Source: a virus
Taxonomy: Duplodnaviria > Heunggongvirae > Uroviricota > Caudoviricetes
IMG/VR virus record: IMGVR_UViG_3300009419_001390
DNA: 64,000 nucleotides
Reading direction: 5' to 3' (one strand)
Made by a program: the position numbers and the translations under genes. Shown here one piece after another: positions 2,504 to 54,964 of this stretch. Position 1 is the stretch's first letter. Each line of letters opens with the position of its first letter. The notes beneath the pieces were generated by a model. The model had not been told where the DNA came from and did no database searches. It saw nothing but the letters and a program-made list of their open reading frames with translations.

Positions 2504-3223
2504 ATGCAAGAAACAATCCTAAGTGAAAAAATTACAATCGTGATCCCTTGCAAGAACGAGGAGAATTACATTGGATACTTGTTATTACATCTACGCAATC
2601 AACTGATTGGTAGTACTAGAATTATTATTGCAGACTGTTCTACAGATAACACTCGAGAAGTGATTCAAAAGTTAAAGGGTAAATTGAATGTTGAAATCAT
2701 TGATGGTGGTCCAGTCAGCCAGGCCAAGAACCGCGGAGCTGCCTTGGTTACCACACCCTACATCTTGTTCATTGATGCTGATGTTCGCTTCTTCAATGTC
2801 AACACGATTCGTGATGCAGTAGCCAAATTGGAATCTAAGAACCTAGATCTACTAGGGCTGAACATCAAATGCTATGACAACGACAAACGTGCCAGCATTG
2901 GCTTTGCTGTGTTCAACGGTATCAATCGCGTTCTAAAACATTTCAGTCCATTTGCTGTGGGCGCATTCATGCTCACACGCAGAGACCGGTTTGAAGAGTA
3001 CGGCGGCTTTCCTGAGCAGATGTCAACTTCTGAAGACTACTTCCTATCTAGATGCTACAGCCCAAAAAAGTTTAGCATACTCAATCACTATTTTGGACAA
3101 GACAGCCGTAGGTTTAAGAAGATGGGCTATTTTGGTATGGCCAAGTACTTGGTCCAGAACTTTGTTAACCGCAACAACAAGAAGTACTGGGACAGTTTGG
3201 ACAACAGCAAATACTGGTCATGA
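2504..3223 (+). CDS. family 2 glycosyltransferase
   Basis: N-terminal ITIVIPCKNEE, DxD-like FIDADV, GT-A fold pattern. Confidence 0.6.
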   Translation: MQETILSEKITIVIPCKNEENYIGYLLLHLRNQLIGSTRIIIADCSTDNTREVIQKLKGKLNVEIIDGGPVSQAKNRGAALVTTPYILFIDADVRFFNVNTIRDAVAKLESKNLDLLGLNIKCYDNDKRASIGFAVFNGINRVLKHFSPFAVGAFMLTRRDRFEEYGGFPEQMSTSEDYFLSRCYSPKKFSILNHYFGQDSRRFKKMGYFGMAKYLVQNFVNRNNKKYWDSLDNSKYWS

Positions 3224-3246
3224 CAGTCGCTTTGGTGCCTTTTTAT

Positions 3247-3276
3247 TTGACATCAGTAGTAACCAGCATATATAAT
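3247..3276 (+). promoter_or_regulatory. sigma70 consensus promoter TTGACA-18-TATAAT
   Basis: perfect hexamers upstream of OMP gene pair. Confidence 0.6.
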
Positions 3277-3322
3277 CCATGTGTTGCGTAACAGCGCACA
3301 TTTTCAAAAAGGAAATTTTCAA

Positions 3323-3880
3323 ATGAAGAAGTTTATCGCATTGGCCGCACTATTGGCCGCAAGCACTGCCTTTGCAGGCGGTTTTGGCTCTGTTGAATAC
3401 AGTGGTCGTGACGGCGTTGATGGTACAGCAGATGCTCGTGCCACCAAGGTAACCATGGGCACAGATATCAATCAACTGTTGAAGGCCGATTTCAGTCTAC
3501 GTCAAAAGACCAACACTGACAACGATCTCAGCGACACACGCCTGGAAGGTGGCCTAACAGCCACGCAACCAATTGGCGGCACTGGGTTCAGCGTGTATGG
3601 TCGTGGTGCAGTGGGTGAGAAGTTCAAGACTTCGGCCAACTATACCTACTACTCAGTGGAGCCAGGCATCAAGTATGCGGTGACTCCGGCACTGAGTGTC
3701 AAAGCAGGCTATCGCTATCGTGCCGCACTAGACAGTGCAAACGCAGACACCACTCGTACATACCGTTTGGGTGCTGAGTATGCACTGACCAAGAACTACT
3801 TTGTTGGCCTAGGCTACGATCAAGTTCGCGGTGACAGCACATACAATGCTACCAACGTCGCTGTTGGTTTCAAGTTCTAA
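3323..3880 (+). CDS. small outer-membrane beta-barrel protein (signal peptide, C-terminal Phe), paralog 1
   Basis: MKKFIALAALLAASTAFA signal peptide; alternating amphipathic strands; terminal VGFKF typical of OMP beta-signal. Confidence 0.55.
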   Translation: MKKFIALAALLAASTAFAGGFGSVEYSGRDGVDGTADARATKVTMGTDINQLLKADFSLRQKTNTDNDLSDTRLEGGLTATQPIGGTGFSVYGRGAVGEKFKTSANYTYYSVEPGIKYAVTPALSVKAGYRYRAALDSANADTTRTYRLGAEYALTKNYFVGLGYDQVRGDSTYNATNVAVGFKF

Positions 3881-3902
3881 TCTAGAACTATTCAACCACA
3901 AC

Positions 3903-3926
3903 AGGGGCCTTGGCCCCTGTTCTTAT
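3903..3926 (+). terminator. rho-independent terminator (AGGGGCC-TTG-GCCCCT + T-rich)
   Basis: hairpin immediately after OMP-1 stop. Confidence 0.5.
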
Positions 3927-3936
3927 AGGAAAACTT

Positions 3937-4494
3937 ATGTTTAATCAATTAAAAAATGTTTTGCTACTACTAGCAATCACCACCGGAGTTGCACAAGCCC
4001 AGACCTTTGCTGGCATCAACAGCATGTTTGGAAAAAGTCCAACTGGCGCAACAGACACAGGATATCAGTTTGTTGTGGGTCATCGCATGGACAACGTTAT
4101 TGTTGATGCCATTGCTGAAACTGTGATTCCAGATGCTACCAAAGTTGCAATCAATCGACTGGAAGGTGGTGCGAGTTTGTTATTGCCCACTGGCACTGTA
4201 ATCACACCCTATGTGCGTACTGCTCTAGGAATCAAAACTGTGGGTGGCAATCAGTTTGCCTACTACAGTGCCGAACCAGGTGTGCGAATGGCCGTTGGAC
4301 CTGGCACTGCTAGATTAGGCTGGAGATATCGCAATGCAGTTGATGCTGACCAATACAATGACAACACACGTGGATGGCGTGCCGTTTATGTGTTGCACAT
4401 GTCCAAGACCTTGGATATCAACTTTGCCTATGAATCTGTTCGTGGTGATGCTAATTACGACGGAGTCATGACAGGCTTCACAGTACGATTTTAA
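3937..4494 (+). CDS. small outer-membrane beta-barrel protein, paralog 2
   Basis: signal peptide LLLLAITTGVAQA; same conserved blocks as 3323..3880 (EPG..A.GP, GWRYR, Y-x-x-VRGD); terminal TVRF. Confidence 0.55.
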   Translation: MFNQLKNVLLLLAITTGVAQAQTFAGINSMFGKSPTGATDTGYQFVVGHRMDNVIVDAIAETVIPDATKVAINRLEGGASLLLPTGTVITPYVRTALGIKTVGGNQFAYYSAEPGVRMAVGPGTARLGWRYRNAVDADQYNDNTRGWRAVYVLHMSKTLDINFAYESVRGDANYDGVMTGFTVRF

Positions 4495-4509
4495 TTGTGC
4501 CAAAAAGTC

Positions 4510-4537
4510 TTGACGAGCTTTTTTGTTCGTGTATAAT
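4510..4537 (+). promoter_or_regulatory. sigma70-like promoter TTGACG-16-TATAAT
   Basis: upstream of ahpC. Confidence 0.5.
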
Positions 4538-4572
4538 ATACACATTAATTCATTGTTATAGAGGAAATCAAA

Positions 4573-5112
4573 ATGAAAACAGTTGGACACAAGTTAGAAA
4601 AATTCGCAGTCACGGGTGTCAAGCCTGGACAGCCAGAAGATGCGTTCTTCGAAATTACAGATGAGAGCTTTCCCGGCAAGTGGAAGGTAATTGTTTACTA
4701 TCCAAAAGACTTCACATTCGTTTGCCCTACAGAAATTGTAGCCTACGACAAACTAACAGGTGACTTTGCCGACCGTGATGCAGTCCTGCTTACAGGTTCA
4801 ACAGACAATGAGTTCTGTAAAGTCAGCTGGCAAACAGCTCATGCTGATTTGAAGAAAATCACACACAACCAGTTCGCTGACACACAACGTGGCGAGTTGA
4901 GTCTTATCGATCAATTAGGAGTTTTCTATGCTCCAGCAGGTGCCGCACTTCGCGCAACATTCATCGTTGATCCAGACAACGTTATCCAACACGTTACAGT
5001 CAACAACTTGAACGTAGGCCGTAGCCCAGAAGAAACACTTCGTGTTCTTGATGCGTTACAAACTGGCGAGCTGTGTGCATGTAACCGTACAGTTGGCGGT
5101 GAAACACTTTAA
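4573..5112 (+). CDS. ahpC: peroxiredoxin (AhpC/TSA family, 2-Cys type)
   Basis: FTFVCPTEI peroxidatic-Cys motif; resolving Cys near C-terminus (ELCAC); length 179 aa. Confidence 0.8.
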   Translation: MKTVGHKLEKFAVTGVKPGQPEDAFFEITDESFPGKWKVIVYYPKDFTFVCPTEIVAYDKLTGDFADRDAVLLTGSTDNEFCKVSWQTAHADLKKITHNQFADTQRGELSLIDQLGVFYAPAGAALRATFIVDPDNVIQHVTVNNLNVGRSPEETLRVLDALQTGELCACNRTVGGETL

Positions 5113-5291
5113 TGTTAGAAATATTTCAACGAGGTGTTGAAACATTGCGACAGCCCGATCGTAATCCTAGATGTTATGAAATGACAGAACAGGAACGATT
5201 GGATCGTATTCGCGAGTGGAACAATCGTAATGTTTGGAACACCCCAGAACTTGCTGAAGAAGATGAACTGAACTTCTATCAAGGAGCATAG
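5112..5291 (+). CDS. hypothetical 59-aa protein, translationally coupled (TAATG)
   Basis: start overlaps ahpC stop; stop abuts next ATG; not in ORF track (<60 aa). Confidence 0.4.
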   Translation: MLEIFQRGVETLRQPDRNPRCYEMTEQERLDRIREWNNRNVWNTPELAEEDELNFYQGA

Positions 5292-5504
5292 ATGAAACAA
5301 CAATTACTTAGTGCATTGGAAGCAAACTTTTCAGCACAACTGACCAAGCACAAAATGAATGTGGAGATCATGTTGAACAACCCTATGGCCATTCATGATC
5401 ACACTGACTGGATGGCGGCTGTGGAAACTGAAATTGCGCACATTGCGGAATATGAAGATAAACTAGAAGTGTTGCAAAAATACTTTGTTTCTGGAAAATA
5501 TTAA
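5292..5504 (+). CDS. hypothetical 70-aa protein
   Basis: ORF track; packed between ahpC and ahpD. Confidence 0.45.
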   Translation: MKQQLLSALEANFSAQLTKHKMNVEIMLNNPMAIHDHTDWMAAVETEIAHIAEYEDKLEVLQKYFVSGKY

Positions 5505-5505
5505 A

Positions 5506-6015
5506 ATGAATTTTATTGAATCAGTAAAAGGTGCGTTACCAGACTACGCCAAAGATACAAAATTAAATCTAGATGCGGTGTTACTGCGTAGCACACTAGA
5601 CGCAGATGTGGCCATGGGATGTGCCGTAGCCGCACTGGCCGCAACAGGCAATGGCAAAATTCTGTCAGTAATTTTAGCAGATGCTCCTGTACATGCAGAG
5701 TCAGCAATGACAGCCGCCAGCATCATGGCACAGAACAACGTATGGTATCCCTATGTTGAAATGGCAGATGATGCCGCACTCAAAGGTTTGCCAGCACAGT
5801 TACGCATGAATGCTATTGCAAGTCATGGTGGAACTACCAAAGCAAACTTTGAAGCATTCTCGTTGGCCGCAAGTATTGTGGGCAAGTGTCACTTCTGTGT
5901 TAAGGCACACTATGACACATTGAAGAACTCAGAAGGCTACACAGTGGAACAACTTCGTGACATTGGGCGCATTGCATCAGTTATGAATTCAGTTGCTAAA
6001 GTTCTTAACAGTTAA
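5506..6015 (+). CDS. ahpD: alkylhydroperoxidase AhpD-like (carboxymuconolactone decarboxylase family)
   Basis: GKCHFCVKAH matches the AhpD catalytic signature C-H-[YF]-C-x-x-x-H; about 170 aa. Confidence 0.6.
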   Translation: MNFIESVKGALPDYAKDTKLNLDAVLLRSTLDADVAMGCAVAALAATGNGKILSVILADAPVHAESAMTAASIMAQNNVWYPYVEMADDAALKGLPAQLRMNAIASHGGTTKANFEAFSLAASIVGKCHFCVKAHYDTLKNSEGYTVEQLRDIGRIASVMNSVAKVLNS

Positions 6016-6026
6016 TTGGAGACAAA

Positions 6027-6446
6027 ATGTTAGAATGTTTGATACTCGGAGATTCAATAGCAGTGGGCACATCACAGGCTAGACCTGAGTGTGTTAGTTA
6101 CAGCAAAGGCGGATGGAATAGTTGGCAATGGAACAAGGACTATCTTTCCAAAGCATCCAACCAACCCTCCAAAACAATTATCATCAGTCTAGGTGCTAAT
6201 GATCATAAAGGTGTCAAGACAGAAGCAGAACTACGTAAAATGCGCGAAGCGATCAAAGGAGATCGTGTGTACTGGATTGATCCAGGACAGGATCGTAAAC
6301 CTATTCCACACGATGCAATCGTTCGGATTGCTAAAGAGTACGGGGATACAATCATTGCTCGACCTAAAAATCACATGAGTGCTGACGGTGTACATCCTAC
6401 TGGTACAGGATACAAAATAATTGCTGAGCAAACAAAAGGCAAGTGA
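6027..6446 (+). CDS. SGNH/GDSL-family hydrolase
   Basis: N-terminal LILGDSIAVG (GDS block I) and C-terminal SADGVHPT (DxxH block V). Confidence 0.55.
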   Translation: MLECLILGDSIAVGTSQARPECVSYSKGGWNSWQWNKDYLSKASNQPSKTIIISLGANDHKGVKTEAELRKMREAIKGDRVYWIDPGQDRKPIPHDAIVRIAKEYGDTIIARPKNHMSADGVHPTGTGYKIIAEQTKGK

Positions 6447-6640
6447 TGCAAGTGAGAGTAAAAGACAATCCAGAAGACATTGGCCGATGTGGTTGTGGTC
6501 GTAGTCCAACCGGCAAGTGTTGTGGCTGGCATGGTCTCACCGAAGATGAATACAAGAATGAACTTGAGCTGTACGAATACAAAAAGCAAGCACAGGGTCT
6601 TTGGAATGACAGTTGCACCAGTGGCAGATCTGAACAGTAG
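6446..6640 (+). CDS. small Cys-rich protein (CGCG...CCGWHG)
   Basis: TGATG coupling to upstream gene; six Cys in 64 aa. Confidence 0.4.
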   Translation: MQVRVKDNPEDIGRCGCGRSPTGKCCGWHGLTEDEYKNELELYEYKKQAQGLWNDSCTSGRSEQ

Positions 6641-6758
6641 GCCTCGTGAATTTCACTAGCCAAGATTAATGATTTCCTGGATATGATTTGACCATTTTTT
6701 GTCGTATAATCTTCATACATACTAAGACATCAACAGTATGTCATTCAAGGAGAAAATT

Positions 6759-6833
6759 ATGAAATGGTCTACACCAACTGCACAAGACATGCGTTTCGGC
6801 TTCGAAATTACCATGTACATTGCAAATCGTTAA
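6759..6833 (+). CDS. pqqA: PqqA-like peptide (coenzyme PQQ precursor), MKWSTPTAQDMRFGFEITMYIANR
   Basis: 24 aa; AAGGAG SD; conserved E-x-x-x-Y core and about 60 percent identity to Pseudomonas/Acinetobacter PqqA ([23 protein letters not shown]) from memory; own terminator. Confidence 0.6.
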   Translation: MKWSTPTAQDMRFGFEITMYIANR

Positions 6834-6853
6834 TTTGTTAACAAAAGTACTAG

Positions 6854-6884
6854 AAAAAACCCTTGTTGATCAAGGGTTTTTTTG
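6854..6884 (+). terminator. rho-independent terminator (AACCCTT-loop-AAGGGTT + T7)
   Basis: follows pqqA-like gene. Confidence 0.6.
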
Positions 6885-6897
6885 TGGCCAAAAACGG

Positions 6898-6926
6898 TTG
6901 ACCTAAATGGCTCATTTTGTTATACT
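6898..6926 (+). promoter_or_regulatory. conserved early promoter box cggTTGACC-17-TATACT (copy 1 of 3)
   Basis: 33/36 nt identical to copy at 51005..51033, related copy at 20594..20622. Confidence 0.6.
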
Positions 6927-6953
6927 GTATGCTAGACACTAAGGAAACGGCGC

Positions 6954-7322
6954 ATGAAAGCATTTTTAGAAATTACAGAATGGGCAGATACCCAGTTCAA
7001 CTGCAATCATGTGTACTGGATGGATGATGCCCGAAACAAGATGCATGCCTATGCTCGTTTTGGTAATCCCAAAGACACTCAGACATTCCGAGCACCAATT
7101 CAAATTGACACCCGCGGACGCAAGTTTGTGGAAGTGCGCAATGACATCTACAACTGGACTGATACAAAAGTTGAGGTCAGTGCCAACCCAACCTGGACCA
7201 TTGAGGGTAGCAAAGGCGCCAAATATGTTGTAGAAAAAGATGGTTCAGTGTATAATTGCACTTGTGCTGGTTTCAAATTCCGCGGTGCTTGCCGCCACAT
7301 CGAAGAGGTTCAAAATGCTTAA
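6954..7322 (+). CDS. SWIM zinc-finger domain protein
   Basis: C-terminal NCTCAGFKFRGACRH fits CxCx(n)CxH; AAGGAAA SD. Confidence 0.45.
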   Translation: MKAFLEITEWADTQFNCNHVYWMDDARNKMHAYARFGNPKDTQTFRAPIQIDTRGRKFVEVRNDIYNWTDTKVEVSANPTWTIEGSKGAKYVVEKDGSVYNCTCAGFKFRGACRHIEEVQNA

Positions 7323-8622
7323 ACCATGGGAAGTAATTGCAGAGCTGGAAGGCGACAACAGCCGCTTGATCAAAGAAGCAGTGGTTCGTCGTGAAAGCGA
7401 AAACGGCAACGATGAACTGTTCCGTGGCTTCCGTGCCGCATATGATGCCATGATCACCTTTGGTGTTAAAAAGGTAGAGCCCAAGACAGGCGACGGCAAG
7501 GGATTAAAAGCAGAACGTTTCTGGCGTGTGGCACAGGAATTGAGTGAGCGCCGACTCACTGGCAATGCCGCACAAACTGAAATCAATGTCATGCGCCAGG
7601 ACGCCACAGAAGCAGAATGGAACATGTGGTATCGACGCATCCTAATCAAGGACATGCGCTGTGGTACCAGCGACAGCACAATCAACAAACATGCCCACGA
7701 ACGTTATCATGTGCCTGTGTTCTCTTGCCAACTGGCACATGACGGTGCCAATCATGAAAGCAAGGTCACAGGTGAAAAGCTGATTGAAGTCAAGCTGGAC
7801 GGTGTGCGTGTGATTACTATTGTGTACCCAAATGGACAAGTAGATCAGTACAGCCGCAATGGCAAAGAACTGGTCAACTTTCCGCATGTGAAACAACAAC
7901 TGGCCAAACATGCCTCACTGTTTGCAGAACCCATGGTCTTGGACGGTGAGATTATGAGTGCAAGTTTTCAAGACTTGATGAAGCAAGTGCATCGCAAGAG
8001 TGATGTCAAAGCCAATGACGCCATGTTGAACTTGTTTGACATGTTGACCCTGCGTGAGTTCCAAGCAGGCGTAGGTGAGCAACGTCAAATTGATCGTAGC
8101 ACTACACTACGAGCCTGGTACGACAGCATTGAAGCACACATGCCAGATGTCACTGTGGTAGGACAAGAGCTAGTGGACTTGGATACTGCAAAAGGTTTGG
8201 CTCGCTTCAAAATGATCAATACGCAAGCAGTGGCAGGCGGCTTCGAAGGTATCATGATCAAAGATCCAGAAGCACGTTACGAAACCAAACGCACAGTGGC
8301 CTGGCTCAAGCAAAAGCCTTTTATTGAAGTGAGCTTGACCGTGGTTGGCTTTGAAGAAGGCACAGGCAAGAACGCAGGCAAACTGGGTGCCTTGATTGTG
8401 GAAGGTGTGGATGACGGTAAGACTATCCGTACCAATGTGGGCTCGGGTCTTACTGATGCCTTGCGTGAAACAATCTGGGGTAGCCAAGCTCAAGTGTTGG
8501 GTAGCATAGTTGAAGTTCGTGCAGATGCCGCAACACAGAATCAAGACAGCGACGGTGCGTGGAGCCTGCGCTTTCCGCGATTCAAAGGCTTCCGTGGTTT
8601 TGCAGTGGGTGAAAAGTTATGA
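7315..8622 (+). CDS. ATP-dependent DNA ligase
   Basis: KLDGVR adenylation motif (KxDG); about 435 aa; alternative upstream start 7240. Confidence 0.75.
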   Translation: MLKPWEVIAELEGDNSRLIKEAVVRRESENGNDELFRGFRAAYDAMITFGVKKVEPKTGDGKGLKAERFWRVAQELSERRLTGNAAQTEINVMRQDATEAEWNMWYRRILIKDMRCGTSDSTINKHAHERYHVPVFSCQLAHDGANHESKVTGEKLIEVKLDGVRVITIVYPNGQVDQYSRNGKELVNFPHVKQQLAKHASLFAEPMVLDGEIMSASFQDLMKQVHRKSDVKANDAMLNLFDMLTLREFQAGVGEQRQIDRSTTLRAWYDSIEAHMPDVTVVGQELVDLDTAKGLARFKMINTQAVAGGFEGIMIKDPEARYETKRTVAWLKQKPFIEVSLTVVGFEEGTGKNAGKLGALIVEGVDDGKTIRTNVGSGLTDALRETIWGSQAQVLGSIVEVRADAATQNQDSDGAWSLRFPRFKGFRGFAVGEKL

Positions 8623-8816
8623 CAGTATCTAGAGTTGTTGCACAAAATAACGAAATTTATAGACAGACAGAAATTAAAAAGTCAGACCAGCGGCATTCAG
8701 AAGGTGTTCAAGACGAGCGTAGAGTCAAACACAATCGAGAAATCGACGAGCAAAAAAGAATTGAAATGAATCAACAAATGAATCGTTCAGGACAAAATGT
8801 AGACAGGATGGCATAA
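8619..8816 (+). CDS. hypothetical highly charged 65-aa protein
   Basis: ATGA overlap with ligase stop. Confidence 0.35.
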   Translation: MTVSRVVAQNNEIYRQTEIKKSDQRHSEGVQDERRVKHNREIDEQKRIEMNQQMNRSGQNVDRMA

Positions 8817-9097
8817 TGGACAAAACAACAAATGAAGTAATGGATATTCTGCAAGAAGAATGTGCAGAAGTAATCCAAGCAGTGAGCAAGATCCGCAGGT
8901 TTGGCATTGACAATCACAAGCCCGGCAAGCCCAAGACCAACAGAGAGCACCTGGAAGAAGAACTGGGTGATTTGTATGCCATGATTGATATCCTACAGGA
9001 ACTGGATATTGTGAGCTGGTCAGGAATTGAAAAGGCCGCAGAAGCCAAACGTGAGAAATTGAAAACTTGGTCAAACATTTTTGAGGTCAAAGCATGA
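8816..9097 (+). CDS. mazG: MazG-like nucleotide pyrophosphohydrolase (small, paralog 1)
   Basis: EECAEVIQAV...EELGDLYAMIDIL EExxE/ExxD helix motifs. Confidence 0.55.
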   Translation: MDKTTNEVMDILQEECAEVIQAVSKIRRFGIDNHKPGKPKTNREHLEEELGDLYAMIDILQELDIVSWSGIEKAAEAKREKLKTWSNIFEVKA

Positions 9098-22135: not shown

Positions 22136-22357
22136 GTGGCTAAAGAAGGATTTGTTAATGTAACTGGTGTGGTAGAAGAAGTACTGCCCAATGCTACATT
22201 CCGAGTGGCACTCGAAAATAGCCAACATAAAATAATTGCGTATCTTGGCGGCAAATTACGCCAAAATAATATCAAAGTGCTCATGGGCGACACAGTTGAA
22301 CTAGAAATGAGCCCGTATGATTTGTCCCGCGGTAGGATCATATATCGTACTAAATAG
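22136..22357 (+). CDS. infA: translation initiation factor IF-1
   Basis: near full-length similarity to bacterial IF-1 (GVVEEVLPNATFRVALENS...MSPYDLSRGRIIYR); GTG start; AGGAGAAGG SD. Confidence 0.8.
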   Translation: MAKEGFVNVTGVVEEVLPNATFRVALENSQHKIIAYLGGKLRQNNIKVLMGDTVELEMSPYDLSRGRIIYRTK

Positions 22358-22361
22358 TCGT

Positions 22362-22925
22362 ATGAGTACCATACGACAACTAATTTCACTTGTGGAAAGC
22401 AAGGAAAAGAAAGATCTTGTGCAGGCAACATTGCCTTACAAACGCACAGATCTTGATCCTGTGAAATCCAAAGATACCCTGGACTATCACTACGGCACGT
22501 TGTATCGAGGTTATGTTGATCGATACAATGCCGGCGAAGGCGATGCAGACTTCAACGAAGCAGGTGCGTTTCTACACAACATATATTTTACACAACTACA
22601 ATCACCTGTGTCTGGCAACAAACCTGAAGGCGCCAGTGCAGAACTGATCAATCGTAAATTTGGTACATATCTTGATTTCCAAAAACAACTGGAAAAACAA
22701 GCCATGAGCATACAAGGGTCAGGCTGGGTGTATCTCAGCAGATCTGGCGAAATCAAAACAATCAAAAATCATCAGATCAAAAAAGACATTGCACTGCTAA
22801 TAGATTGGTGGGAACATGCCTGGGCACTGGATTATCAAGCAGACAAGGCCAAATACTTAAAAAATATATGGCGTATTATAAACTGGGAAACTGTGAATCG
22901 AAGAATATATGGAGGCATCAAATGA
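22362..22925 (+). CDS. Fe/Mn superoxide dismutase homolog
   Basis: LPY...YHYG...YV N-domain and [13 protein letters not shown]-domain; all four metal ligands (His, His, Asp, His) alignable to E. coli SodA. Confidence 0.6.
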
Positions 22926-53029: not shown

Positions 53030-54964
53030 ATGGGCAAAATCATCGGTATCGATCTGGGTACCACAAACTCGTGTGTTGCCGTAATGGAAGGCAACGTTCC
53101 AAAAGTAATCGAAAACAGCGAAGGCGCACGTACTACCCCTAGTATTGTAGCATACGCCAATGACGAAGTCTTGGTTGGTGCAAGTGCAAAACGTCAGGCT
53201 GTGACCAATTCAAAGAACACCATCTACGCCGCCAAGCGTCTGATTGGTCGTAAGTTCAAAGAAGACGCTGTGCAGAAAGACATCGATATGATGCCTTTCA
53301 AAATTGTTGAAGCTAAAAATGGTGATGCTTGGATCAGCGCCAACAACAGCGAACTAGCACCACCGCAAATCTCAGCTGAGGTATTGCGTAAAATGAAACA
53401 AACTGCTGAGGCATACCTTGGCACAGAAGTAACCCAAGCAGTTATCACAGTTCCTGCTTACTTCAATGACTCACAACGTCAAGCAACCAAAGACGCAGGT
53501 AAAATTGCAGGCCTAGAAGTGTTGCGTATCATCAATGAACCAACAGCGGCGGCTCTTGCTTATGGCATGGACAAAGCCACCAAGAAGGATGCCAAGATTA
53601 TTGTTTATGATCTAGGTGGCGGCACATTTGACGTATCGGTCATTGAAATTGCCAACGTGGATGGTGACAAACAGTTTGAAGTTCTTGCTACCAATGGTGA
53701 CACATTCTTGGGCGGTGAAGACTTTGACCAACGCATCATGGACTACTTGGTTGAAGAGTTCCAAAAAGAATCAGGTGTTGATCTAAGCAAGGACACACTG
53801 GCACTGCAACGTCTAAAGGACAGCGCAGAAAAGGCCAAGATTGAACTGTCTAGCAACACACAAACAGAAATCAACTTGCCTTATATCACAGCTGATGCAA
53901 GCGGTCCCAAGCACATGGCAATCAAACTAAGTCGTAGCAAGCTGGAAGGCTTGGTAACAGACTTGGTAGAACGTTCAATTGAACCATGCCGCATTGCTCT
54001 CAAGGATGCAGGCCTAACTACTGCCGACATTGACGACATTATCCTTGTTGGTGGACAAACACGCATGCCCATGGTACAAGGCTACGTGGAAAGTTTCTTT
54101 GGCAAGGCACCACGCAAAGACGTGAACCCAGGCGAAGCAGTGGCCGCGGGTGCGGCTATCCAGGGTGCTGTGTTGGCTGGAGACAAAACGGATGTTCTAC
54201 TCCTAGATGTCACACCACTCTCACTGGGTATCGAAACGCAAGGTGGAATTATGGCCAAGGTTATTACCAAGAACACAACCATTCCTACCAAGCAAACACA
54301 AGTGTTCTCCACAGCCGAGGACAATCAACCTGCGGTAACTATCAAGGTACATCAAGGTGAACGTGAAATGGCTCAGCACAACAAACTGTTGGGCGAGTTC
54401 AACTTAGAAGGTATTCCACCTGCCGCACGTGGCACACCGCAGATTGAAGTTACATTTGATGTGGACGTAAACGGTATCCTCAAGGTAAGTGCCAAAGACA
54501 AAGTCACAGGCAAGAGCAACAACATTACTATCAAGGCCAATTCAGGTCTGACAGAAGCCGAAATTGCACAGATGGTTGCGGATGCAGAAGCTAATGCCGA
54601 AGCTGACAAGAAGCAACGTGAACTGGTTGAGACTCGAAATGCGGCTGAACATCAAGTGTGGGGAGTTGAGAAAAATCTCAAGGAGCACGGTGACAAACTA
54701 TCTGAAGAAGAGCGCGAAGCAATTAAAACTGCCTTGCACGATTTCAAGAAAGTGCTGTCAGATGAAACAGATCCAGACAAGATCAATGAAGCTCTGCAGG
54801 CATTTGTACCAAAAGCCATGCCATTGTTTAACCTAGCCGGTCAAGCCGAAGAGGAAAAACAAAAGGCTGATGCTGAAGAAGTTAAATCCAAGAAGGAAGG
54901 CAAAGACGATAATGTAGTTGATGCTGAATTTACGGAAGTCAAAAAAGACGAAGAGTCTAAATAA
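53030..54964 (+). CDS. dnaK: molecular chaperone DnaK (Hsp70)
   Basis: [36 protein letters not shown] and full-length Hsp70 architecture ending in Glu/Lys-rich tail. Confidence 0.9.

Follow-up and report, generated by a model that had tools for sequence, protein, structure and literature searches.

A conserved AhpC–AhpD gene pair carried by freshwater phages and its likely role in peroxide reduction

We analyzed a 64,000-nucleotide stretch of viral DNA (Caudoviricetes; IMG/VR record IMGVR_UViG_3300009419_001390), hereafter the window, and focus on positions 4510–6015, where genes for the peroxiredoxin AhpC and its putative disulfide reductase AhpD lie on either side of two small open reading frames (ORFs). 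A preliminary description, made without database searches, had read this region as a peroxide-detoxification pair in a phage operon. Judged from the sequence comparisons below, the region quite likely encodes a working, phage-borne version of the alkyl-hydroperoxide reductase that bacteria form from AhpC and AhpD. The locus comprises the following features.

4510..4537, plus strand: sigma-70-like promoter candidate (TTGACG, 16-nt spacer, TATAAT; 11 of 12 consensus positions)
4573..5112, plus strand: AhpC, 179 amino acids; three-cysteine typical 2-Cys peroxiredoxin of the AhpD-dependent (Mycobacterium/Burkholderia) type
5112..5291, plus strand: small ORF of 59 amino acids, whose ATG overlaps the TAA stop of AhpC (TAATG); variable cargo
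5292..5504, plus strand: small ORF of 70 amino acids, beginning right after the TAG of the 59-residue ORF; variable cargo
5506..6015, plus strand: AhpD, 169 amino acids; predicted CxxC disulfide reductase that would recycle AhpC; contains CHFCVKAH

The AhpC and AhpD proteins

The first gene encodes the typical 2-Cys peroxiredoxin that the preliminary description had recognized from the motif FTFVCPTEI. This motif occupies residues 47–55, a second one (ELCACN) lies at the C terminus, and the protein matches Pfam PF00578 (AhpC-TSA) over profile positions 2–123 of 124 (E 2e-19; 70.2 bits against a cut-off of 26). Alignment predicts Cys51, within FTFVCPTE, as the peroxidatic cysteine, together with Thr48 and Arg127, and Cys168/Cys170, within ELCACN, as resolving cysteines. 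The P-x3-T-x2-C active site and its arginine (P44, T48, C51, and R127) are invariant across 89 viral-type and 74 cellular sequences, and C168 and C170 are likewise invariant across the 89 viral-type and 74 Burkholderiales sequences.

The top Protein Data Bank (PDB) match is AhpC of Mycobacterium tuberculosis (2BMX; E 9.5e-43), far above the thioredoxin-dependent peroxiredoxins. The alignment joins residues 16–179 of the 179-residue phage protein to residues 26–185 of the chain of its 195-residue mycobacterial counterpart and sets ELCACN on the mycobacterial Cys174/Cys176 pair, which assigns the phage enzyme to the three-cysteine, AhpD-dependent type. Both marks of that type—a C-x-C pair near the C terminus and an adjacent downstream ahpD—are present. 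Enterobacterial AhpC/AhpF shares the peroxiredoxin fold and peroxidatic chemistry with phage AhpC but differs in its reductant: No AhpF-like flavoprotein is encoded in the window, and the phage reductant would be the unrelated, all-helical AhpD. A further cysteine, Cys82, is found in 100% of viral-type AhpC sequences vs. 18% of cellular ones.

For AhpD, we place the start at ATG 5506, one base past the preceding stop codon. The TTG at 5485, which the ORF finder had listed, is an unlikely start because the length from ATG 5506 fits the homologues (168–170 residues). The signature CHFC-x3-H, on which the ORF had initially been named AhpD, is indeed present, but it is not the M. tuberculosis motif, which reads CSHC with the histidine shifted by one position. 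All 76 Burkholderiales AhpD sequences, and nearly every phage AhpD sequence examined, carry CHFC instead. The catalytic set, E-x11-CxxC-x3-H, consists of Glu116, Cys128, Cys131 (the cysteines of CHFC), and His135, which align with E118, C130, C133, and H137 of M. tuberculosis AhpD. Loss of the cysteine pair on alignment had been named as grounds for abandoning the assignment; both cysteines and the Glu/His proton relay are in place. No substitution of E116, C128, F130, C131, or H135 occurs among 171 sequences (95 viral-type and 76 cellular), and His129 reaches 99% in the viral-type set and 99–100% overall.

Profile assignments proposed at the outset as a check returned PF00578 for AhpC and, for AhpD, a weak match to PF02627, the general carboxymuconolactone decarboxylase (CMD) family (E 2e-8), alongside a much stronger one to TIGR00777, the ahpD model (E 1e-33; profile positions 2–169 of 177). 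The best solved-structure matches for AhpD, as for AhpC, come from the M. tuberculosis AhpC/AhpD/DlaT/Lpd system: Residues 4–167 align with mycobacterial AhpD (1GU9/1KNC; E 1.4e-23; ~37% identity), and the Glu-Cys-Cys-His set and the fold are common to both, as ELCACN is to the two AhpC proteins. An AlphaFold model (predicted local distance difference test, pLDDT, 72.7; predicted template-modeling score, pTM, 0.74; residues 82–109 of low confidence) is predicted to lie nearest 1KNC, with a template-modeling (TM) score of 0.74 (E 4.7e-7); other CMD-family structures reach 0.45–0.55. Two further AhpD positions separate the viral-type from the cellular sequences: Cys39 (97% vs. 3%) and His63 (89% vs. 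0%).

Linkage, selection, and descent of the pair

Synteny was counted in viral-type loci with room upstream of AhpD, which fall into three sequence clades. All 166 of these loci (83/83, 71/71, and 12/12) have AhpC on the strand of AhpD and upstream of it, and the claim that one phage brings both partners holds well beyond the window. The three clades have guanine-plus-cytosine (GC) contents of ~36, 40, and 44%; a large second clade (~36% GC) encodes AhpD 60–69% identical to that of the window, and a small third clade (~40% GC) encodes AhpD ~50% identical. In these second and third clades, the catalytic motifs are kept in all 94 AhpD and all 89 AhpC sequences. Among viral copies, AhpC has a median ratio of nonsynonymous to synonymous substitution rates (dN/dS) of 0.08 and AhpD one of 0.057, with dS ~1—near saturation, so that the ratios are approximate, although strong constraint is clear all the same. 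The AhpC–AhpD pair is therefore a real, selected antioxidant module with both genes under strong purifying selection. It also shows the features by which phage genes for defense against reactive oxygen species (ROS) are recognized: phage hallmark genes in the same window, conservation in relatives, and dN/dS of 0.06–0.08.

The spacing of the two genes varies. Their stop and start codons overlap in 27 of the 83 loci of the window's clade, and in the low-GC clade 77 of 80 loci leave at most 8 nt between the AhpC and AhpD tblastn alignments. A translationally coupled AhpC–AhpD pair thus appears to be the ancestral layout.

Relatives are abundant in sequence databases. The protein database holds thousands of AhpD relatives, the best 120 of which are 87–98% identical, and AhpD genes occur on at least 595 IMG/VR contigs, with 91–96% identity in the best 80. 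Five of these contigs measure 331–353 kb, which marks the lineage as jumbo phages, and their gene neighborhoods are phage-like. Automatic annotation by the Joint Genome Institute (JGI) already labels these proteins correctly. A megablast search of window positions 3000–9000 against INPHARED returned no match and hence no close isolate.

Two sets of database records were set aside. The sole INPHARED record with both genes, ON170345.1 ("Ralstonia phage YO375_1"), was not accepted as a phage example: It carries an UNVERIFIED_ORG flag, is 68% GC around the pair, and matches the window in nothing beyond the two genes, and its ahpC–ahpD end is probably Ralstonia chromosomal DNA. High-identity "bacterial" matches in metagenome-assembled genomes (MAGs; loci L011-L015 and L024; GTDB) were not accepted as evidence of a host. 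Their bins span Haliscomenobacter, Hydrogenophaga, Beijerinckiaceae, Acidimicrobiaceae, Fischerella, and Bacteroidota; because the contigs are short (3.0–23 kb), 37–44% GC, scattered over unrelated taxa, and placed on the viral branch of both gene trees, these records are probably phage fragments assigned to the wrong bins.

The closest genuine bacterial genes form ahpC–ahpD operons in Burkholderiales (among them Piscinibacterium, Caldimonas, Burkholderia, Paraburkholderia, Undibacterium, and Cupriavidus) and share 48–58% identity with the window in AhpD and 62–68% in AhpC; Burkholderia loci stand at 54% and ~64–66%, respectively. Neighbor-joining trees of both genes, rooted on M. tuberculosis, each place a single viral clade as sister to Burkholderiales, which fits a single capture of a two-gene operon.

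Junction cargo, transcription, and phage context

The two small ORFs that the preliminary description had noted between AhpC and AhpD exist as abutting, coupled frames, but they are variable cargo rather than parts of the system. Neither has a Pfam or NCBIfam match. The 59-residue ORF resembles the C-terminal part of a 142-residue membrane protein found at the same junction in some relatives; by tblastn it occurs at the AhpC/AhpD junction in 9 of 80 IMG/VR loci, and by ORF clustering its family, represented by the 142-residue ORF of relative L107, comprises 10 loci. The 70-residue ORF occurs at the junction in five loci, the window included. Few relatives share these ORFs, and neither is a partner of the enzyme pair.

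The junction behaves as an insertion hot spot. In the window's clade, its commonest insert is a class II aldolase/adducin-like gene (PF00596, E 6e-28; L107:4313-4999 and 23 other loci), followed by a GDSL hydrolase (18 loci) and small membrane proteins; Bax-inhibitor-1-like (L105), PsiE-like (L094), and DUF2061 (L104) genes and others of no assigned family also occur. A redox partner was sought among the genes inserted between AhpC and AhpD in relatives, and none of them is redox-related. Two further ORFs continue the gene block downstream of AhpD.

6027..6446, plus strand: GDSL/SGNH-type hydrolase-like ORF, 139 amino acids; mobile cargo of the same gene block
6443..6640, plus strand: small Cys-rich ORF with the motif CGCGRSPTGKCCGWH; no Pfam match

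The hydrolase-like ORF scores just below the cut-off for Pfam Lipase_GDSL_2 (E 1.8e-7) and slightly above it for Lipase_GDSL (24.6 bits against 23.6); in other relatives the GDSL gene stands between AhpC and AhpD or upstream of AhpC. In L002-5, L152-154, and L168, the motif of the Cys-rich ORF recurs immediately downstream of AhpD, and in the divergent L015 it falls between AhpC and AhpD. This ORF could encode a zinc-binding or redox-related small protein loosely tied to the module.

The promoter-like site at 4510–4537 sits 35 nt upstream of the AhpC ATG, with a GAGG ribosome-binding site in between. In 45 of 83 (54%) viral-type loci, the 130 nt that precede AhpC contain a site scoring at least 10 of 12, vs. 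5.5% of random segments. The genes of the block 4573–6640 follow one another without gaps; together with the upstream site, this arrangement suggests a single operon read by host RNA polymerase, and the block is probably transcribed as such by the sigma-70 enzyme from 4510–4537.

Gene content points to a T4-like phage as the source of the window. It encodes a T4-type clamp loader, baseplate-wedge and virion proteins, a Gp23-like capsid protein, an ATP-dependent DNA ligase, and lysis genes; a large virion protein shares 44% identity with its counterpart in the T4-like cyanophage S-CAM1. All genes lie on one strand, and GC content is uniform at 42–47%, with 44–45% in the AhpC/AhpD region. Host-like genes include DnaK (full length at 53030–54964; Hsp70, E 2.5e-253), DnaJ, Cpn10, peptide deformylase, IF-1, and an IscA-like Fe-S carrier. 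A scan for tRNAs, which might have given clues to the host, found none in the window; from the origin of the genes alone, a Burkholderiales-like host may be inferred.

The same phage carries a second antioxidant gene, in agreement with the superoxide dismutase (SOD) homologue that had been placed near 22362.

22317..22925, plus strand: Fe/Mn superoxide dismutase homologue

This ORF matches Sod_Fe_C (E 8e-24) and Sod_Fe_N (E 7e-9), and its best PDB match is the Fe-SOD 8AVM (E 2.7e-26), in an alignment that includes the metal-ligand motif DWWEHAW. Its N-terminal domain match is weak and shortened, covering Sod_Fe_N profile positions 6–41 of 82 only. SOD homologues occur on 401 IMG/VR contigs; the best 80 are 57–84% identical to that of the window and far more divergent than AhpD (91–96%).

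Several other genes of the window were noted. Upstream of AhpC, tandem ORFs at 3247–3880 and 3910–4494 resemble outer-membrane beta-barrel proteins, the first of which matches OMP_b-brl (E 4e-8) and appears to carry a signal peptide at its N terminus; TTGACA-18-TATAAT (3247–3276), a perfect sigma-70 consensus, stands at their upstream side. Outer-membrane proteins are uncommon cargo for a lytic phage. An ORF at 623–1363 carries a biotin-protein-ligase N-terminal/class I glutamine amidotransferase-like domain (BPL_N, E 2e-12), and a Band_7 protein, an Hc1 histone-like protein, a SutA RNA polymerase (RNAP)-binding domain, and a Pol III alpha fragment are also encoded.

Electron supply, competing explanations, and biological meaning

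The closest characterized counterpart is the AhpC/AhpD system of Burkholderia thailandensis, in which AhpC uses Cys57 as peroxidatic and Cys171/Cys173 as interchangeable resolving cysteines, and AhpD (C131, C134) binds AhpC and reduces it through its CxxC motif (PMC6626918). Electrons were shown biochemically to pass from NADH through Lpd and lipoylated SucB to AhpD; substrates include H2O2, organic hydroperoxides, and peroxynitrite; and TrxC also reduces AhpC, less efficiently than AhpD does (PMC6626918). Gene order (BTH_I2092-type AhpC, BTH_I2091 AhpD) is ahpC–ahpD as in the phage, and the residues correspond one for one: C57/C171/C173 to phage C51/C168/C170 in AhpC, and CHFC C131/C134 to C128/C131 in AhpD. 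The phage system differs in being phage-encoded, in its identity to the bacterial proteins (~65% for AhpC and 54% for AhpD), in the absence of SucB and Lpd from the window, and in a junction often split by unrelated genes; it has a sigma-70-like promoter, whereas B. thailandensis ahpC is OxyR-controlled (no search for OxyR sites was made in the phage).

For the phage pair, the sequence data establish homology, catalytic residues, synteny, purifying selection, monophyly, and phage context; from these we infer what the enzymes do, which donor feeds them, when they are expressed, and how the phage benefits ecologically. Because the phage proteins retain all residues of the B. thailandensis system, we propose the same cycle. 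Cys51 of AhpC would reduce H2O2, organic hydroperoxides, or peroxynitrite and become a sulfenic acid, which would go on to form a disulfide with Cys168 or Cys170; AhpD, through its CxxC cysteines Cys128 and Cys131 and with His135 and Glu116 as activators, would then return AhpC to the reduced state. The need for a host thiol donor, anticipated in the preliminary description, fits the finding that no reductant of AhpD was detected among the ~99 ORFs of the window. By comparison with the known systems, protein-bound dihydrolipoamide, carried by the E2 subunit (SucB/DlaT) of the host's 2-oxoacid dehydrogenases, is the most likely donor, with Lpd and NADH as ultimate source; host thioredoxin would be an alternative, possibly secondary, route. 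The phage SOD would generate H2O2 from superoxide and AhpC–AhpD would remove peroxide in the infected cell, so that SOD and the pair together may protect both the cell's metabolism and the replicating phage in oxic, sunlit water. Infection may itself involve strong oxidative stress, as was first suggested from the same three genes.

Several observations weigh against a captured, AhpD-driven peroxide reductase. Both proteins fall below curated NCBIfam cut-offs: AhpD scores 116.6 bits on TIGR00777 against 191.95, and AhpC 108.4 bits on TIGR03137, the AhpF-dependent equivalog, against 272, which leaves it outside the enterobacterial group. The proteins of Burkholderia cenocepacia score alike, however—114.6 bits for its AhpD, a homologue of the experimentally proven B. 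thailandensis enzyme, and 115.8 bits for its AhpC, likewise outside the enterobacterial equivalog. The low scores thus reflect narrow models rather than decay, and the TIGR00777 cut-off leaves out the whole proteobacterial AhpD branch. The promoter is a consensus match only, and over the whole scanned region such matches are no commoner than in shuffled sequence. The trees are simple neighbor-joining trees whose cellular sampling comprises the 80 best matches only. No lipoyl-domain, Lpd/Pyr_redox, thioredoxin, or glutaredoxin gene occurs among the ~99 ORFs of the window, in a genome of ~340 kb; with none found in these 64 kb, the reductant of AhpD is taken to come from the host. Finally, 0.2–2.4 kb of unrelated cargo splits AhpC from AhpD in most relatives of the window's clade (56 of 83 loci), from which it follows that tight translational coupling is dispensable.

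This last point, with the reduction of B. thailandensis AhpC by TrxC (PMC6626918), favors an alternative in which host thioredoxin mainly recycles phage AhpC and AhpD has a separate role, as a weak alkylhydroperoxidase or as a reductant of other disulfides or lipoyl proteins. We hold this to be improbable: The two genes keep the same order in every viral-type locus of all three clades, their gene trees are congruent, and the homologous bacterial AhpD binds AhpC directly and is its more efficient reductant (PMC6626918). Somewhat less probable still is that the pair chiefly manipulates host redox or central metabolism and not peroxide—by draining electrons from the lipoyl arms of pyruvate/2-oxoglutarate dehydrogenase, as a redox signal, or as a peroxiredoxin chaperone. 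Lipoylated E2 subunits do feed AhpD-type systems (PMC6626918), and the phage carries the host-takeover and housekeeping genes listed above (DnaK, DnaJ, Cpn10, peptide deformylase, IF-1, and IscA-like); yet nothing speaks for such a role specifically, the peroxidatic residues of AhpC are all invariant, as peroxide turnover requires, and an SOD gene in the same genome fits detoxification.

Host DNA—through contamination, chimeric assembly, or a recent unselected passenger—is a very remote explanation, and the evidence refutes it. The ON170345 pair, at 68% GC and with no phage-like neighbors in the comparison, does look like Ralstonia chromosome, but the region in the window has the GC content of the rest of the phage, the at least 595 IMG/VR contigs with AhpD include close relatives in phage gene neighborhoods, true bacterial genes are distant, the viral clade is monophyletic, and constraint is maintained over dS ~1. 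Less likely still, and likewise refuted, is a generic CMD-family protein such as PcaC in place of AhpD: The Pfam match is to the general family and covers the C-terminal half only (34.6 bits), but the TIGR00777 match is full-length, the NCBIfam matches are to ahpD, ahpD_dom, and peroxidase-related models with no decarboxylase model among them, E-x11-CxxC-x3-H is invariant, the predicted fold is nearest M. tuberculosis AhpD by a wide margin (TM 0.74 vs. at most 0.55), and the gene is always accompanied by a three-cysteine AhpC.

A functional phage AhpC/AhpD peroxide reductase thus remains our preferred reading. As to its history, we propose that a two-gene operon was acquired from a Burkholderiales-like bacterium and that several abundant clades of freshwater phages have since retained the pair as one unit. 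A wider proposal, which we advance only tentatively, is that the pair is an anciently captured, near-universal module of several top-abundance freshwater phage clades (T4-like jumbo phages of ~340–350 kb included) that taps the lipoylated 2-oxoacid dehydrogenases of poorly scavenging hosts for NADH-driven peroxide removal, with its junction a preferred landing site for cargo.

Freshwater phages are already known to carry ROS-defense genes, and the published idea of "phage-mediated ROS defense" names SOD, glutathione peroxidase, thioredoxin, glutaredoxin, and ferritin (PMC6802176); AhpC, AhpD, and "alkyl" do not occur in the supplementary files examined. Those genes and prxU of Microcystis phage MaAM05 resemble the present pair in being host-derived antioxidant genes of lytic aquatic phages with the same cell-protection rationale. 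Unlike single peroxiredoxin genes such as prxU, here peroxidase and dedicated reductant are carried as a conserved two-gene module. Full-text literature searches returned no description of a phage AhpC–AhpD pair, and an account of the "moraphage" jumbo lineage, with predicted Bacteroidota hosts, does not mention peroxide genes (PMC12619734). The enzymes are textbook enzymes, the ecological rationale is published, and single antioxidant genes in phages are already known; the pair is an ordinary kind of phage auxiliary gene, neither a new enzyme nor a new principle. What is added is that several clades of very abundant freshwater phages carry a complete module of peroxidase and reductant, conserved and strongly selected, whose junction is prone to insertions.

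The more than 160 loci form a well-sampled natural series on the insertion of cargo genes into a conserved two-gene operon. The retention of peroxidase and reductant together also makes testable the hypothesis that peroxide damage limits phage replication in oxic, sunlit water and that host NADH, delivered via lipoamide, counters it. If the wider proposal is true, ambient H2O2 would be a direct determinant of phage productivity in lakes.

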